Source: Alphaproteobacteria bacterium
GTDB lineage: Bacteria > Pseudomonadota > Alphaproteobacteria > CAAHEQ01 > UBA3637
Length of the DNA: 64,000 bases
Direction: 5' to 3'
Assembly: GCA_017647405.1 (NCBI GenBank)
Contig: JAGCKR010000041.1
Location: 45,218-109,217 of the forward strand
Shown here: one piece after another, positions 41,858-47,587 of the stretch
How the letters are laid out: each line of letters starts with the position of its first letter
How positions within the stretch are numbered: the stretch's first letter is position 1
Made by a program: the position numbers and the translations under genes
The notes under the pieces: model-generated
The model's input: the letters and a program-made list of their open reading frames with translations, nothing else
Told to the model about the DNA's origin: nothing
Databases searched by the model: none

Positions 41858-43396
41858 TTAAAGGCCTCCATTAAGGCAGCTTTTATTTATTTTTTTGTTA
41901 AATTCTTTTTTGATGTCATTTTTATTTTTTTTCTTGATTTCTTCAAAAAGCGCGTTTTCTGCATTTTTTTCTTTTATCAGGTGATCAATTTCCTGTGCAT
42001 TTATAATTGTGAAGTTAACTTCACCATTAATATCTTTTTCAAGCGCATTCACATAGTGATAACTCTTATAAGCTTTTGAGGACATCATAATTTGTTTAAG
42101 GTTTCGATAGTCTTCAGAATCTTTGGGTAAAGTGTCGAGCATTTTTAGTTGCTCTGAATATGACATTTTTAAATAATCATTAAATTTATTTGGTTTACTT
42201 TTTGAGTTGAAAAGATCTGAATGATTTTTTGTTATACGATCGCGAACAATTTGAATATTTTTGCTTTTGGCAGAAACTAATTCTTCCTCAATTTTTGAAA
42301 GAGAGGCAACATCATTTGCATCAATGCTTGATTGAATGCCTATTTCTTTGAGTTGATTGTTTATTTTATTAACAATTTTTGATTTGCCCTCTTGAACAAT
42401 ATTTAACACATTTTCAGCAGTTGTTTTTTCTTTTTTAACAGCTTGATAAACATTTAATCTATTATTTTGTTCATCAACGCCTTTATGTCTTGCCTCTTCA
42501 TTTAAGACAAGTGTTTTAGGCTGAAAAATTTTTGCCATTTCACCATTTTCATTATATGTTGTAAATCCGCTTTGAATAAATTGTTTCCATGGTACAGGCC
42601 ATTCAGGAAAAACGGTTTTTGATTTTGCCGGATCTTCATTAAACCACATAATTTCATGTGCTGGCGGTAAGGCTTTTGGAGGTTTGGGAAATGATTTTTG
42701 AGCGGGTGTTAATTTACTAACAGTTTCGGGAGGTAATGTTTTTAAAAAAGCGTTATAAGCTGCTTCATTTTGTTCGAAAGAATTTGCAGCTGAAATACCG
42801 GCAATTCTTCCTGTCCTTCCAAGAATTTGATTGATGCTGGTTAAAAATGAATTCACCTGTTCCGAATAAATATATTTTTGGTCTTCCCACAAATCAAAAG
42901 ATTTTCCTTTTTTTAATGTGCCGTATTTTTCAGGTGTTGCATAAACATCTTTTAAAACTTCTCTTCCTAGATACCAATTAGCAAACAATTCTGCATTGGC
43001 ATCTTCACCGGTACTTGTTTTTTTAGGAGCGCTTGATAAAATATCAACTGTTAATTTTAATTCTTTTTCATCATATTCTTGAGTAATATTTTGCCAAGCT
43101 TCTTTTGGGTTTTCGTAGACATCGGAAAGTAATTTTATATTGCAAGCTTCCATTGCATTATATTTTTGATTGACAAGATCAAGTCTTAGTTTTTCATTAT
43201 CCTCTTTTTCATATGTATCTTTTAAAGATTTTAATTTCGTTTGCAGCGCATGAACTTGCTCAAGATACATAATTTCTGCGGTATAATCTGTTGTTTCTTG
43301 TTCAGATGTTGTTTGTTCAACAGAGGGGGCAGTTGCATAACAGTTGAATGAAAAAAATGAAATACTTGCTACTGTCAAAAATAAAAAATGTTTCAT
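41858..43396 (-). CDS. Secreted Lys/Glu-rich helical protein, unknown family (T4SS-linked gene 7 of 7)
   Basis: Start moved to MKHFLFLTVASISFFSFNCYA (signal peptide); the track start at 43471 overlaps the upstream gene. 512 aa. The stop is directly adjacent to the virB8 copy 2 start. Confidence 0.6.
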   Translation of the reverse strand: MKHFLFLTVASISFFSFNCYATAPSVEQTTSEQETTDYTAEIMYLEQVHALQTKLKSLKDTYEKEDNEKLRLDLVNQKYNAMEACNIKLLSDVYENPKEAWQNITQEYDEKELKLTVDILSSAPKKTSTGEDANAELFANWYLGREVLKDVYATPEKYGTLKKGKSFDLWEDQKYIYSEQVNSFLTSINQILGRTGRIAGISAANSFEQNEAAYNAFLKTLPPETVSKLTPAQKSFPKPPKALPPAHEIMWFNEDPAKSKTVFPEWPVPWKQFIQSGFTTYNENGEMAKIFQPKTLVLNEEARHKGVDEQNNRLNVYQAVKKEKTTAENVLNIVQEGKSKIVNKINNQLKEIGIQSSIDANDVASLSKIEEELVSAKSKNIQIVRDRITKNHSDLFNSKSKPNKFNDYLKMSYSEQLKMLDTLPKDSEDYRNLKQIMMSSKAYKSYHYVNALEKDINGEVNFTIINAQEIDHLIKEKNAENALFEEIKKKNKNDIKKEFNKKINKSCLNGGL

Positions 43397-43400
43397 TCTA

Positions 43401-43973
43401 TTATTCCTCCGGTAAGTCGTTTTCTGTTGGATCCCAATATGTTTTATGTCGTTTTGCTGTTGCAAGACCAATTAATGCATTATATTGTAATTGTGTGGCT
43501 CTCAATTGTTTTTGAATGAGTAATAATTTTGCCCATGCAATTTTAATGGCTGCAGTTGTTAGTAATAATTTAACTTTGTTTTCATTTGATTCCAAAGAGT
43601 TACTTCTTGATGCGGCTCTGGAAGAATTGTCAATTTTCTTTTCCATATCCTCAATAATGTTAAAGATTTTTTTTGTGTTATATTTTAACACTAATATTCT
43701 GGCCATCATTTGAAGGTTAGCTTGTTGTCGGATATATTCTCTTTTTTTTACAAAATCATAGTCCCCCTCATGATCTCCATAAGGATCGTCTGCATATAAT
43801 CTCATGTTGCTTTTCATAATATTTTCAACTTTAGAGGTGCCAGGATCAGCTCTGCGAATAATAACTTCTTTAGGCGCCTTATTCCCTGCAACAAGTTGTT
43901 CTGCATAACTGGTTGAACAAAAAGCGAATCCCGCGATGATTAAGATGATAAATAACGGTAAATTTTTTCTCAT
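43401..43973 (-). CDS. Secreted helical protein, unknown family (gene 6 of 7)
   Basis: Signal peptide MRKNLPLFIILIIAGFAFCSTSYA. 190 aa with a long C-terminal amphipathic helix KVKLLLTTAAIKIAWAKLLLIQKQLRATQLQYNALIG. Confidence 0.6.
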   Translation of the reverse strand: MRKNLPLFIILIIAGFAFCSTSYAEQLVAGNKAPKEVIIRRADPGTSKVENIMKSNMRLYADDPYGDHEGDYDFVKKREYIRQQANLQMMARILVLKYNTKKIFNIIEDMEKKIDNSSRAASRSNSLESNENKVKLLLTTAAIKIAWAKLLLIQKQLRATQLQYNALIGLATAKRHKTYWDPTENDLPEE

Positions 43974-44287
43974 TTTTGTTCTCCCAATAAATCGACGGCT
44001 GTTTCTTTGGCTGTTTCTCTTGCTTCTTTGAAAACTGCAGAAGCTCCATCTTGTAATGTTGATATGGTTTTATTCACCAGTGCTGTTGCCTGTTGTTTAT
44101 AATGATTATATTGCTTTTGCCCTTCTGAAATTCCTCTTGATACCATATCACCAACACTGCCCGGTTCCAAAACCGGACCGCCAACACTTTGAATCCAACA
44201 GGCATCACAAGGGATGCAGATACCTCCTTCAGCTGAAAAAGATGCCGCAGTTAAAAATAAAAACAAAATAGAATAAATTATTTTCAT
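43970..44287 (-). CDS. Small secreted Cys-containing protein, unknown family (gene 5 of 7)
   Basis: Signal peptide MKIIYSILFLFLTAASFSA, then GGICIPCDACWIQSVGGP (three Cys). 105 aa; 4-nt overlaps on both sides. Confidence 0.55.
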   Translation of the reverse strand: MKIIYSILFLFLTAASFSAEGGICIPCDACWIQSVGGPVLEPGSVGDMVSRGISEGQKQYNHYKQQATALVNKTISTLQDGASAVFKEARETAKETAVDLLGEQK

Positions 44288-45824: not shown

Positions 45825-45833
45825 ATTATCCTC

Positions 45834-46634
45834 CTAGTCAAGCCATGAACCGGCCATGCCGCCGATAGCGGTAAAAAACATTGAACCAAGCATATCTTTT
45901 AATGTGCTGTTTGTATGTGTAACATAATCGGCAGAGCTGATAGCTGTGAGCATATTATTTGTTGCACTTGTTAAAATAACAGCATTATAAATTTGAGCAG
46001 TACTCATTTTAACACTGGTGTTATTAGAGACGGTTGAACTGTAATTTTTTGCTGTGTTTGTTTGTTCCGTTGTTCTTTTATCAATGGAGCTTTTTCCATC
46101 TAAATTACGGGCCGCTTGTGTTTTATGAACGGCAGCCAAAGCATATCCAAATGTGGCAACTTCAACCAATGCCCGTTCTCTTTTTTCTTTCGCTTCGGAT
46201 GTTTCCGTTATACCGGCAGCATCAACGCCCGTTTCTGTTTCATCATCATCGTCTTCACTATTTTCATTGTTACTTTTTGCCGGGGGTAAAAGAGTTTCTT
46301 GAAAAAAGTTACTCCCGCTGATACCCTCTGGAATTTTATCTGAGGCGCCTTTTCCTTCTTCTGAAAGAGAGTTGTTGACACCTTCTGATGTTTTTTGAAG
46401 ACCCAAAAGATCTAAAGTGCCATTCGTGAAATCTTCAATTCCCCCTAAGAGCGTGTTTTTGAAAGATGTTTGTGTTTGTGAATCTTGTTTTTGATCTCTG
46501 GTTTCATTATCAGCATTTTCTTGTTTTGATTGGCCAGATTTGTATGCGCCAGAGTCCGTAACAGATACGGCAAAAACGTTCTGGGTGGGAAATGCGACAA
46601 GTAATAAAAGAAAAACGGATATTATTTTTTTCAT
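45834..46634 (-). CDS. Secreted protein with acidic low-complexity centre, unknown family (gene 2 of 7)
   Basis: Signal peptide MKKIISVFLLLLVAFPTQNVFA. NSEDDDDETETG. C-terminal AQIYNAVILTSATNNMLTAISS and a Gly-rich hydrophobic end MFFTAIGGMAGSWLD. Confidence 0.6.
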   Translation of the reverse strand: MKKIISVFLLLLVAFPTQNVFAVSVTDSGAYKSGQSKQENADNETRDQKQDSQTQTSFKNTLLGGIEDFTNGTLDLLGLQKTSEGVNNSLSEEGKGASDKIPEGISGSNFFQETLLPPAKSNNENSEDDDDETETGVDAAGITETSEAKEKRERALVEVATFGYALAAVHKTQAARNLDGKSSIDKRTTEQTNTAKNYSSTVSNNTSVKMSTAQIYNAVILTSATNNMLTAISSADYVTHTNSTLKDMLGSMFFTAIGGMAGSWLD

Positions 46635-47587
46635 TAGAAGAATCCTCCGTCTACTTTAATGGCGTTAATAGTGTTATAGATTGTCAAAGAATTAAGCTCC
46701 AATGTTGATAAATCTAATCCAAAATATGTTCCTCCGATAACATTAAATGCTAAATCGGATTCTGCGCGTTTTGTAAGTGTTTCAGAAACAGTTCGGGGTG
46801 TTTCATTATTTGTGTCTTCTTCAACTTTTTGAAAGTTTGCCGTTGAATTAATAACGGTGGCAGAATCAGCATATAAATTGGCGATGCTTTGAGATTGCCC
46901 TTTAGCAACATGCTCATGAATATCCCCAACTTCAAACATGCCTAAATTTTTGTCGTTATCCAGATAAAAACACTCACTGACACCTTCTTTTGTTTTCAAA
47001 TTTTCGCAAAAAGCTTCGGATTCATCTCTTGCAAGGAAACGATCAATAGGGTTGAGTTCGTTAATTTTGTTAACAACATTTGAGGCTGTAGTCTTAATAT
47101 TTGCAAATCCGCTTCCTGCCTTTTCTGTGCCAGCTTCATCAGATGAAAAAAGACCTGATATGTAATTTGTTCCGCTATCTATCATTCCGCCAACCGTATC
47201 ACCAACACTATTGACAACATTATTTACTGTTCCGGTAACGGCTCCTGTTACAGCGCCTGTTATAGTTGTTACAGATCCAACAGCAGCATCAAATGTTTCC
47301 GTAACAGTGCTTTCAATGCCATCGATTGTTGAAGCGGCATCTTGAATAAATTGGCCAAATCCAGATTGACTGAAATAATCAGGAAAACCATTAAGGGCAT
47401 TTTGAGCTTCCATTAACATGTTGATATTACCTTCTGTACTTAGGTGAGAAACTGCTGCTTTTACGTCACCTTTATAATCAACGTTTGTATACTGTACAGG
47501 AATAGCAAAACACTCTTGTTGTTGCAACAAACAAGTTCCCAAAATAATTAAACATAAACTAAATCTTAAAAACCTCGGATGAAACAT
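46634..47587 (-). CDS. Secreted Gly/Thr/Val-rich protein, unknown family (gene 1 of 7)
   Basis: Signal peptide ...LLQQQECFA. GAVTGAVTGTVNNVVNSVGDTVGG repeat-like tract. Ends VDGGFF. Strong RBS (AGGAGGGG). Confidence 0.6.
   Translation of the reverse strand: MFHPRFLRFSLCLIILGTCLLQQQECFAIPVQYTNVDYKGDVKAAVSHLSTEGNINMLMEAQNALNGFPDYFSQSGFGQFIQDAASTIDGIESTVTETFDAAVGSVTTITGAVTGAVTGTVNNVVNSVGDTVGGMIDSGTNYISGLFSSDEAGTEKAGSGFANIKTTASNVVNKINELNPIDRFLARDESEAFCENLKTKEGVSECFYLDNDKNLGMFEVGDIHEHVAKGQSQSIANLYADSATVINSTANFQKVEEDTNNETPRTVSETLTKRAESDLAFNVIGGTYFGLDLSTLELNSLTIYNTINAIKVDGGFF

Follow-up and report, generated by a model that had tools for sequence, protein, structure and literature searches.

A clade-conserved cassette of six predicted exported protein families adjoins virB8 of an rvh-like type IV secretion system in uncultured Alphaproteobacteria

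A 64,000-nucleotide stretch of DNA (hereafter the window) from an Alphaproteobacteria bacterium (assembly GCA_017647405.1, contig JAGCKR010000041.1, positions 45,218 to 109,217) was found to carry a block, or cassette, of seven consecutive open reading frames (ORFs) that ends directly at a virB8 gene of a type IV secretion system (T4SS). The ORF listing and the junction sequences of the minus strand were examined within the window, and the encoded proteins were scanned for hydrophobic segments by the Kyte-Doolittle method using 19-residue windows and a threshold mean of 1.5. By this approach, the block was mapped to 47587-41858 on the minus strand and found to encode, in gene order, proteins of 317, 266, 261, 247, 105, 190 and 512 amino acids (aa), designated here p317 to p512. 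All seven proteins begin with a Sec-type signal peptide composed of a basic n-region, a hydrophobic core and an AxA-like cleavage site (CFA/I, VFA/V, AQA/G, VQA/C, FSA/E, SYA/E and CYA/T in gene order, with the slash marking cleavage), and a GGAG/GGAGG-type Shine-Dalgarno site precedes each of the seven starts. The only second hydrophobic 19-mer to reach the threshold in the seven proteins was a borderline one in p190, an amphipathic helix at residues 134-154 (mean 1.57).

The genes of the block are tightly coupled. From p317 to virB8 the junctions consist of a 1-nt overlap (TAATG), gaps of 9 and 11 nt, two 4-nt overlaps (ATGA), a gap of 4 nt and a gap of 0 nt, the last of which places the p512 stop (41858) against the virB8 ATG at 41857. 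Consensus scanning revealed no minus-strand terminator-like site within the block or at the 41858/41857 junction, and it yielded promoter-like and terminator-like sites at no higher frequency than shuffled sequence does. Nothing relevant came from scanning the region with Rfam and for tandem repeats. Thus, the original prediction of seven tightly packed signal-peptide ORFs, with no further transmembrane segments and no visible terminator ahead of virB8, was reproduced, the borderline p190 helix aside. Intact ORFs in identical order were detected in more than 20 other assemblies, which argues that these are real genes and not chance ORFs. Based on gene spacing and synteny, the block, the adjoining virB8 paralogue (VirB8a) and the remaining VirB7-VirB11 genes are probably co-transcribed.

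The first gene of the cassette, p317 (46634..47587), was defined by its ORF, Shine-Dalgarno site and junction, and its predicted exported product starts IPVQYTNVDY after cleavage. The p317 protein includes a repeat region rich in Gly, Thr and Val, a pair of conserved Cys residues (Cys194/Cys206) and helices at the C-terminus. Orthologues of p317 occupy the equivalent position in related loci (L003, L008, L011, L012, L004, L013 and L016). The second protein, p266 (45834..46634), is likewise predicted to be exported and has a low-complexity middle that is acidic and Ser/Thr-rich; its orthologues begin GIPVSD or IPISD after the signal peptide. Also predicted to be exported are p261 (45039..45824), whose family is retained even in the most distant loci, and p247 (44284..45027), the most widely detectable family of the block. 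The p247 protein contains three Cys residues, begins CPVID once the signal peptide is removed and has two long helices in its C-terminal part. It also carries an acidic insert, EDDKEDDKED, which is encoded by a perfect 12-nt tandem repeat (2.2 copies) at 44611-44637 and is absent from the closest orthologues. Assignment of p247 as a lipoprotein was rejected, as the residues before Cys28 form no consistent lipobox and the L005 protein is without the Cys. The last and largest gene, p512 (41858..43396), encodes a predicted exported protein with an invariant Cys85/Cys507 pair, and the family alignment revealed a conserved Pro-rich segment, PKPPKALPPA(N/H)EI, as well as NNRLNVYQ and NALEKD motifs. 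The ATG at 43396 was preferred as the p512 start over the TTG at 43471 of the mechanical ORF listing, based on the GGAGG site upstream and the same start in independent gene calls. Endings of the GGKK, GGFF and NGGL type at the C-termini of block proteins were considered as motifs and rejected, since they are footprints of the GGAGG ribosome-binding site of the next gene.

Alignment to relatives reduced the seven separate genes of the original prediction to six families. In most relatives (L003, L008, L011, L012, L016, L004 and others) a single gene encoding 256-277 aa was found in place of p105 (43970..44287) and p190 (43401..43973). The p105 protein, made up of a signal peptide and a helical region together with a CxPCxxC motif that it shares with the unsplit protein, aligns to the N-terminal ~85 residues of that protein. 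The p190 protein starts with a signal peptide of its own that has no counterpart in the unsplit orthologues and continues with their C-terminal ~165 residues, with a conserved helix-loop-helix after the signal peptide. Judged by these alignments, p105 and p190 (43401-44287) are the halves of one ancestral ~260-aa gene that underwent fission, with the downstream half gaining a new signal peptide. The same fission was detected in L010 (L010:235-1127), a separate lineage in which p512 is 63% identical to that of the window over the best aligned segment. The new signal peptide of the downstream half was thus kept in two lineages, which suggests that export of each piece is under selection; retention of the split together with the regained export signal likewise suggests that both pieces function outside the cytoplasm.

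Similarity between the proteins of the block was analyzed by BLASTP all-against-all and by HHalign using non-overlapping positional orthologues with signal peptides removed. BLASTP returned no matches among the seven proteins. A first HHalign score of 99.5% that appeared to relate p317 to p247 was rejected as a circular artefact, since the iterative families used for it shared members and Gly/Ser/Val repeats. The p247 and p261 families reached only 54.5% with the deep p247 alignment. Between loci, the proteins encoded first in the distant cassettes (L022:1-840 and similar) scored 84.8% against the p266 family once signal peptides had been removed, and those encoded second scored 93.8% against the p261 family.

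The distribution of the cassette was determined from database searches with several of its members. A protein search with p512 yielded 19 clusters at 99% to 23% identity, and a p512 scan of one genome per species yielded 21 loci; the p512 of the window was also found on a 172,691-bp human-gut metagenome scaffold. For the p261 family, 14 loci were obtained by iterative search, and matches in the database search were limited to close relatives (63-66% identical). A profile of p247 used in a full HMMER scan of 1.84 billion representatives recovered 61 clusters (50% identity, E≤1e-3), and a profile search with the p247 alignment against a word-indexed protein database recovered at least 7 proteins. 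The one informative context among the p247 clusters (L035) displayed identical synteny together with a 2430-aa VirB10. The loci derive from metagenome-assembled genomes (MAGs) labelled 'Alphaproteobacteria bacterium', with two labelled Lactobacillales, and were recovered from human gut cohorts, sheep rectum and roe-deer colon. The two exceptions, L020 (CAYPVK010000001.1) and L027 (CAYJES010000008.1), are titled 'uncultured Lactobacillales bacterium', probably as the result of a taxonomic mislabel or binning error.

In about 25 loci, with p512 identities of 99% down to 22%, the cassette was found directly upstream of virB8 in the same gene order. Relatives carry four to six signal-peptide genes of ~230-820 aa followed by a p512 homologue of 490-725 aa, whose stop abuts or overlaps the start of virB8 in all loci. 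In each of the four loci opened one by one, and in every gene map that shows folD, the cassette is flanked by folD and virB8, with the exception of L027. In L027 an acetate-kinase-like gene lies upstream, with no folD, surA or lptD there, and the block and virB8 are still together. In L005, L006, L027 and L028 the virB9-11 genes are not adjacent, and virB8 is still the next gene after the block. These arrangements point to the cassette plus virB8 as the conserved partnership. Thus, the linkage to T4SS genes that was proposed from the window is strong and persists in altered contexts, and the cassette co-occurs with a giant virB10 in every locus where virB10 follows. The families of the block appear to be confined to this T4SS-bearing clade, and their fixed set across a deep clade fits parts of a machine better than it fits variable effectors.

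To compare rates of divergence, the proteins of the window were aligned by tblastn against related loci. Relative to L003, the block proteins were 47-73% identical compared to 72-92% for VirB8a/b, VirB7, VirB9, VirB10, FolD, SurA and the LptF/G-LptD fusion. Relative to L012, L004 and L016, block proteins were 25-47% identical compared to 51-92% for their neighbours. In more distant loci most block proteins were undetectable by tblastn and all core proteins were detected. In some lineages the p247 and p317 orthologues were found to carry long (V/I)xG(S/A)V-type repeat arrays and to reach 500-820 aa. The expanded p247 orthologues (430-820 aa; also matched by the p317 iterative search) are L017:7238-8740, L018:7515-8810, L022:1582-4014, L023:6595-9066 and L026:7152-9170, and the added length in L017 and L018 consists of Gly/Ser/Val-rich repeat arrays (VTGSVSNVVSG-like). 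These expanded repeats look like rapidly varying surface regions. Fast divergence and Gly/Ser/Val repeat expansions are both typical of surface-exposed parts, and the combination is consistent with such parts here.

The gene order upstream raises the question of whether the block encodes general envelope proteins that belong to the lptFG-lptD/surA/folD string and lie next to virB8 fortuitously. The block is on the same strand as folD and begins 45 nt after it, a gap that makes read-through from the lptD-surA-folD genes possible; folD, surA and the lptFG-lptD fusion lie ahead in almost all loci, and no promoter was assignable with confidence. By contrast, L027 retains the block and virB8 without folD, surA or lptD upstream, the p512 stop and virB8 start abut or overlap in every locus, and the families are restricted to the T4SS-bearing clade and evolve several-fold faster than the adjacent envelope genes. 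The L027 arrangement and the clade restriction, in particular, argue against membership in an envelope operon, and we consider a fortuitous adjacency to virB8 very unlikely.

Searches for known families and folds were negative. None of the seven window proteins matched Pfam or NCBIfam at E≤0.02, and nothing above threshold was found when 89 cassette proteins from relatives and 61 p247-family representatives were analyzed with the same libraries; the representatives of the 61 p247 clusters had no Pfam match. Searches of PDB sequences with three single proteins and with a profile for each of the six families returned only coiled-coil noise. The F-type Tra families (TraF/H/N/U/W and TrbC) were not matched at E≤1 by the window proteins and were absent from the families displayed for the 89 cassette proteins. 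Toxin, pertussis-toxin-subunit and enzymatic domains gave no Pfam/NCBIfam match in the window or the 89 cassette proteins.

Structural models were generated for p512 and p247. The AlphaFold2 model of p512 (18-sequence alignment; predicted local distance difference test [pLDDT] 82.6, predicted template modelling score [pTM] 0.72) is all-alpha, with long helices at both ends and a less regular, Pro-rich middle. A disulfide between the invariant Cys85 and Cys507, if formed, would staple the N-terminal helix of p512 to its C-terminus. Foldseek comparison of this model to PDB and BFVD found generic coiled coils only, none better than E=0.05. The AlphaFold model of p247 (40-sequence alignment; pLDDT 83.8, pTM 0.64) has long helices at residues 36-68, 136-178 and 186-225, the first two of which are separated by short helices at 87-99 and 111-122. 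No PDB entry was a significant Foldseek match to the p247 model, and TraC and TrwJ were not in the top 50. Taken together, neither the profiles of the six families nor the models of p512 and p247 led to a known family, and the description of these proteins as unrecognisable holds for Pfam, NCBIfam, PDB sequences and significant Foldseek matches. It is slightly too strong in that several of the families display weak VirB5/TrbJ/CagL-like features.

The reading that we favour is that the cassette encodes exported accessory components dedicated to the rvh-like T4SS of this clade, some of them possibly VirB5/CagL-like, and we would give it an even chance of being correct. General features of VirB5 proteins are present: Sec signal peptides, lengths of ~220-270 aa and genes located within a T4SS cluster. 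A P-[VIT]-x-D motif was found right after the cleavage site in 20 of the 89 cassette proteins, a 4.5-fold enrichment compared to the remaining sequence; mature p247 of the window starts CPVID, and orthologues of p266, p247 and the fused family start GIPVSD, CPITD, YPVTD and FPILD. VirB5 proteins fetched from plasmids start similarly, with GIPVFD, KPVFD, QVPVLD or VVSD. TraC has been described as three long helices plus a small helical appendage (PMC2653234), and the p247 model, with three long helices and two short ones, recalls this description. CagL, which is called the VirB5 homologue of the Cag system in the cryo-EM study of the R388 machine (PMC9259494), was among the Foldseek matches of p247 at ranks 2, 8, 9, 18 and 50, none of them significant (E 1.4-5.5, TM-score 0.23-0.39).

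Weak matches of the same type were found by sequence. PF07996 matched 2 of the 89 cassette proteins at 5.1e-5 and 0.0053, in both cases short of its 24.7-bit cutoff; the latter is L022:1-840, and the former was narrowed by elimination to a member of the p317 family or to L022:1582-4014 or L026:7152-9170. TrbJ gave one sub-threshold match (1.3e-4) among the 89, and the p266 family profile searched against PDB sequences lists TrwJ (7o3v) at E=1.7. HHalign of the families against nine VirB5 proteins scored 0.3-4.2%, and in a leave-one-out control the A. tumefaciens VirB5 scored only 6.7% against the other eight. The HHalign test thus has little power, as it misses a genuine VirB5, and the low scores are compatible with VirB5 homology. 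A local VirB5 HMM also found no significant match.

Several results weigh against this reading. No window protein matched PF07996 or NF010452 at E≤1, and the 61 p247-family representatives had no PF07996 match at E≤0.1. Coiled-coil noise in these scans (FliJ 5.8e-5, FliD_C 2.7e-5) reaches at least the strength of the weak VirB5-type Pfam matches. Neither by sequence nor by structure did any window protein have a significant match to VirB5, TraC, TrwJ, CagL or any other T4SS component. The canonical position of virB5 is between virB4 and virB6 and not upstream of virB8. When only positional orthologues were used and their signal peptides were removed, all family pairs scored ≤5% by HHalign, and no paralogy was demonstrable. 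The virB2, B3, B4, B6 and D4 genes are not within the 64-kb window, and a conventional VirB5 may be encoded elsewhere in the genome.

These same data bear on a more specific proposal that overlaps the accessory-component reading, namely that the ~250-aa proteins are a true, highly diverged array of VirB5/TrbJ paralogues as in the Trw system of Bartonella, in which case they would not be new families. The P-[VIT]-x-D motif, the p247 model and the CagL, PF07996, TrbJ and TrwJ hints favour it, and the insensitivity of HHalign leaves the low block scores compatible with it. By contrast, nothing significant was found even among the 61 p247 representatives, TraC and TrwJ are missing from the best p247 structural matches, and paralogy among the block families was not demonstrable; we regard a true VirB5 array as unlikely. 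The Bartonella Trw locus resembles the cassette in carrying tandem surface-subunit-like genes within the T4SS locus of a host-associated alphaproteobacterium, and differs in that its trwJ/virB5 and trwL/virB2 copies are obvious recent paralogues, whereas the six families here are without demonstrable similarity. Compared to VirB5/TraC/TrwJ/TrbJ (PF07996) and CagL in general, the cassette shares Sec export, a size of ~220-270 aa, location in a T4SS cluster, a P-V-x-D N-terminus and fast evolution, and differs from VirB5/TraC/TrwJ/TrbJ in having five such families instead of one, in lying upstream of virB8 and in including orthologues of 400-820 aa with low-complexity or repeat regions.

The proteins of the cassette may alternatively be cargo. 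In the ptx-ptl locus of Bordetella, a VirB-like T4SS is preceded directly by five signal-peptide genes for toxin subunits, with which it is co-transcribed. By the same logic, the block would encode a Sec-dependent multi-subunit cargo that assembles in the periplasm and exits by the outer-membrane channel of the T4SS, as a complex that acts on the host or as separate factors. The arrangement found here mirrors ptx-ptl in that a VirB-type system without a recognisable VirB5 directly follows a run of signal-peptide genes and is apparently expressed together with them; the Ptl system is itself without VirB5 (PMC2653234). Signal peptides on all seven proteins, fast divergence and repeat expansions that fit host interaction, and the lack of a detectable T4SS structural domain are consistent with cargo as well. 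Unlike the subunits of pertussis toxin, which have ADP-ribosyltransferase and OB folds, the two confidently modelled cassette proteins are all-helical with no recognised catalytic fold; no similarity to pertussis-toxin subunits, toxins or enzyme domains was detected, and only virB8-11 follow the block. The tightest and most persistent linkage, moreover, is to virB8, an inner-membrane/periplasmic assembly factor, even where virB9-11 are not adjacent, and an invariant set of six families across a deep clade is unusual for effectors; the gene set and the virB8 linkage argue mildly against cargo. Overall, the ptx-ptl precedent makes cargo a serious alternative, to which we assign a low probability.

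The genes downstream of the block, all on the minus strand, encode a VirB-type core. The first, virB8a (41180..41857; PF04335 VirB8, E=1.1e-10), lies next to a p512 homologue in every locus and diverges faster than the second paralogue, virB8b (40197..40892; PF04335, E=3.8e-15). Between the two virB8 paralogues is a gene (40912..41091) for a 59-aa lipoprotein with the lipobox LAAAC. The encoded protein is 58-59 aa in relatives and the most conserved of the locus (70-97% identical across relatives), and it is considered VirB7-like from its size, lipobox and position only. The virB9 gene (38297..40078; PF03524, 2.9e-12) encodes a C-terminal SPOR domain (PF05036, 1.4e-6), with gene callers choosing an internal ATG that yields 580 aa; to our knowledge, no VirB9 of another system has this peptidoglycan-binding domain. 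The giant virB10 (31485..38240) encodes a 2251-aa product with a recorded TrbI domain, in which ~1800 residues separate the N-terminal region from the C-terminal TrbI domain. Relatives have VirB10 proteins of 2200-2538 aa. Of 18 loci in which virB9/virB10 come next, 17 show both VirB10 ends, with the N-terminus 5.3-6.0 kb from the TrbI domain, and one (L019) shows only the N-terminus. This spacing indicates that the giant VirB10 is a character of the clade. No nucleotide tandem repeats were found in the gene. The last of the core genes, virB11 (30482..31471; PF00437 T2SSE, 1e-18), encodes an ATPase whose best plasmid relatives are annotated VirB11. The closest in the plasmid collection (41.7% identical) is from L029, Microvirga sp. 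VF16 plasmid pMVF16-3. The T4SS of this plasmid has a 550-aa VirB9, a 590-aa VirB10 and, after VirB4, an unannotated 273-aa signal-peptide protein that starts QVPVLD and is probably an unannotated VirB5. No virD4 was found after virB11 (29315-31471), where the next gene encodes a peroxiredoxin (AhpC/TSA) on the opposite strand; the gene for the coupling protein would thus lie elsewhere or be absent.

Upstream of the block on the same strand, beyond the 45-nt gap, are folD, surA, a gene for a 1090-aa LptF/G-LptD fusion and xerD, and the remainder of the window carries ordinary chromosomal housekeeping genes (e.g., RNase E, IleRS, HtpG, MipZ and AmiC). In the fusion (49680-52952, minus strand) a single ORF joins an LptF/LptG permease (PF03739) to an LptD outer-membrane domain (PF04453), and it is kept at 1007-1090 aa in all related loci with a complete gene. 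The union of inner- and outer-membrane Lpt components in one protein is topologically odd.

The core resembles in organization the Rickettsiales vir homolog (rvh) T4SS, of which duplicated virB4 and virB9 and multiple virB6 genes are hallmarks; those genes lie outside the window here. Shared with rvh are a duplicated virB8 with a small lipoprotein gene between the copies, a virB9-virB10-virB11 order after these and the lack of an annotated VirB5. Differences include the missing virD4 after virB11 and the labelling of the MAGs only as 'Alphaproteobacteria'. The rvh papers (PMC2653234, PMC11077975) make no mention of an exported cassette upstream of virB8 or of a giant VirB10, and neither these papers nor targeted literature searches described the cassette, the giant VirB10 or the T4SS of this clade.

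The overall design is reminiscent of the Cag system of Helicobacter pylori, whose specific exported components include CagH/CagI/CagL, CagM and Cag3. Both have a VirB-type core, a giant VirB10 (CagY in Cag; 2251 aa here) and several lineage-specific exported proteins, without homologues in canonical systems, that are encoded beside the core genes. They differ in lineage, in gene order and in the rvh-like core found here, with its two virB8 genes flanking virB7. No Cag-specific protein was matched at E≤10 by the six family profiles in PDB sequences, a database that presumably holds the Cag core complex, CagL and CagI and from which only CagL entries were met in the Foldseek results. As far as tested, the resemblance to Cag would thus be one of design and not of descent. 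The locus is a VirB/rvh-like T4SS to which six new exported protein families have been added in the fashion of Cag. The cassette is an accessory module on a known kind of system and not the previously undescribed system for which the original prediction had named it the strongest candidate.

The proposal that the cassette encodes exported accessory components draws on the export signals, the gene coupling, the clade-wide synteny with virB8, the fast divergence, the helical folds and the lack of known domains described above. From these we infer that the proteins are located outside the cytoplasm and become part of the machine, some of them in a VirB5-like role. The cassette genes would be expressed together with VirB8a and the rest of VirB7-VirB11, and their products, once carried across the inner membrane by Sec, would assemble around the VirB8/VirB9/giant VirB10 channel, either in the periplasm or on the cell surface. 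The ~250-aa members, most clearly p247 and p266 and perhaps p317, p261 and p105/p190, may serve as VirB5/CagL-like stalk-tip, pilus-tip or adhesin subunits, a role that would fill a function that rvh systems are thought to lack. The p512 protein, all-helical and putatively stapled by a disulfide, may be a further structural partner in the periplasm or at the surface. In the R388 structure, the periplasmic domains of VirB8 form arches around the VirB5/VirB6 stalk (PMC9259494). Assembly of the cassette proteins near such arches, from which they would be pushed outward, fits the unbroken partnership of cassette and virB8 and the faster divergence of VirB8a compared to VirB8b. A bolder version, in which the six families, the duplicated VirB8 and the giant VirB10 build an extracellular or periplasm-spanning appendage of new folds in place of VirB2/VirB5 (an independent, Cag-like re-invention) or the families form a helical multi-subunit toxin of the pertussis-toxin type that a T4SS expels after periplasmic assembly, we consider rather improbable.

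The usual picture of a T4SS is that of an unvarying set of VirB parts, and the Cag system of Helicobacter is the best-studied exception, in which lineage-specific exported proteins and a giant VirB10 can reshape both the machine and its contact with the host. The findings reported here point to the same design arising in an uncultured alphaproteobacterial clade that is common in human and ruminant gut metagenomes. A p512 or p247 homologue adjoining virB8 provides a genomic marker for the system. The gene fission in which a signal peptide was regained may be viewed as a natural experiment, one suggesting that export of each piece matters. The six unannotated families, two of which have confident models, are candidates for the missing VirB5-type function of rvh-like systems, and may equally represent a new host-contact structure or cargo.

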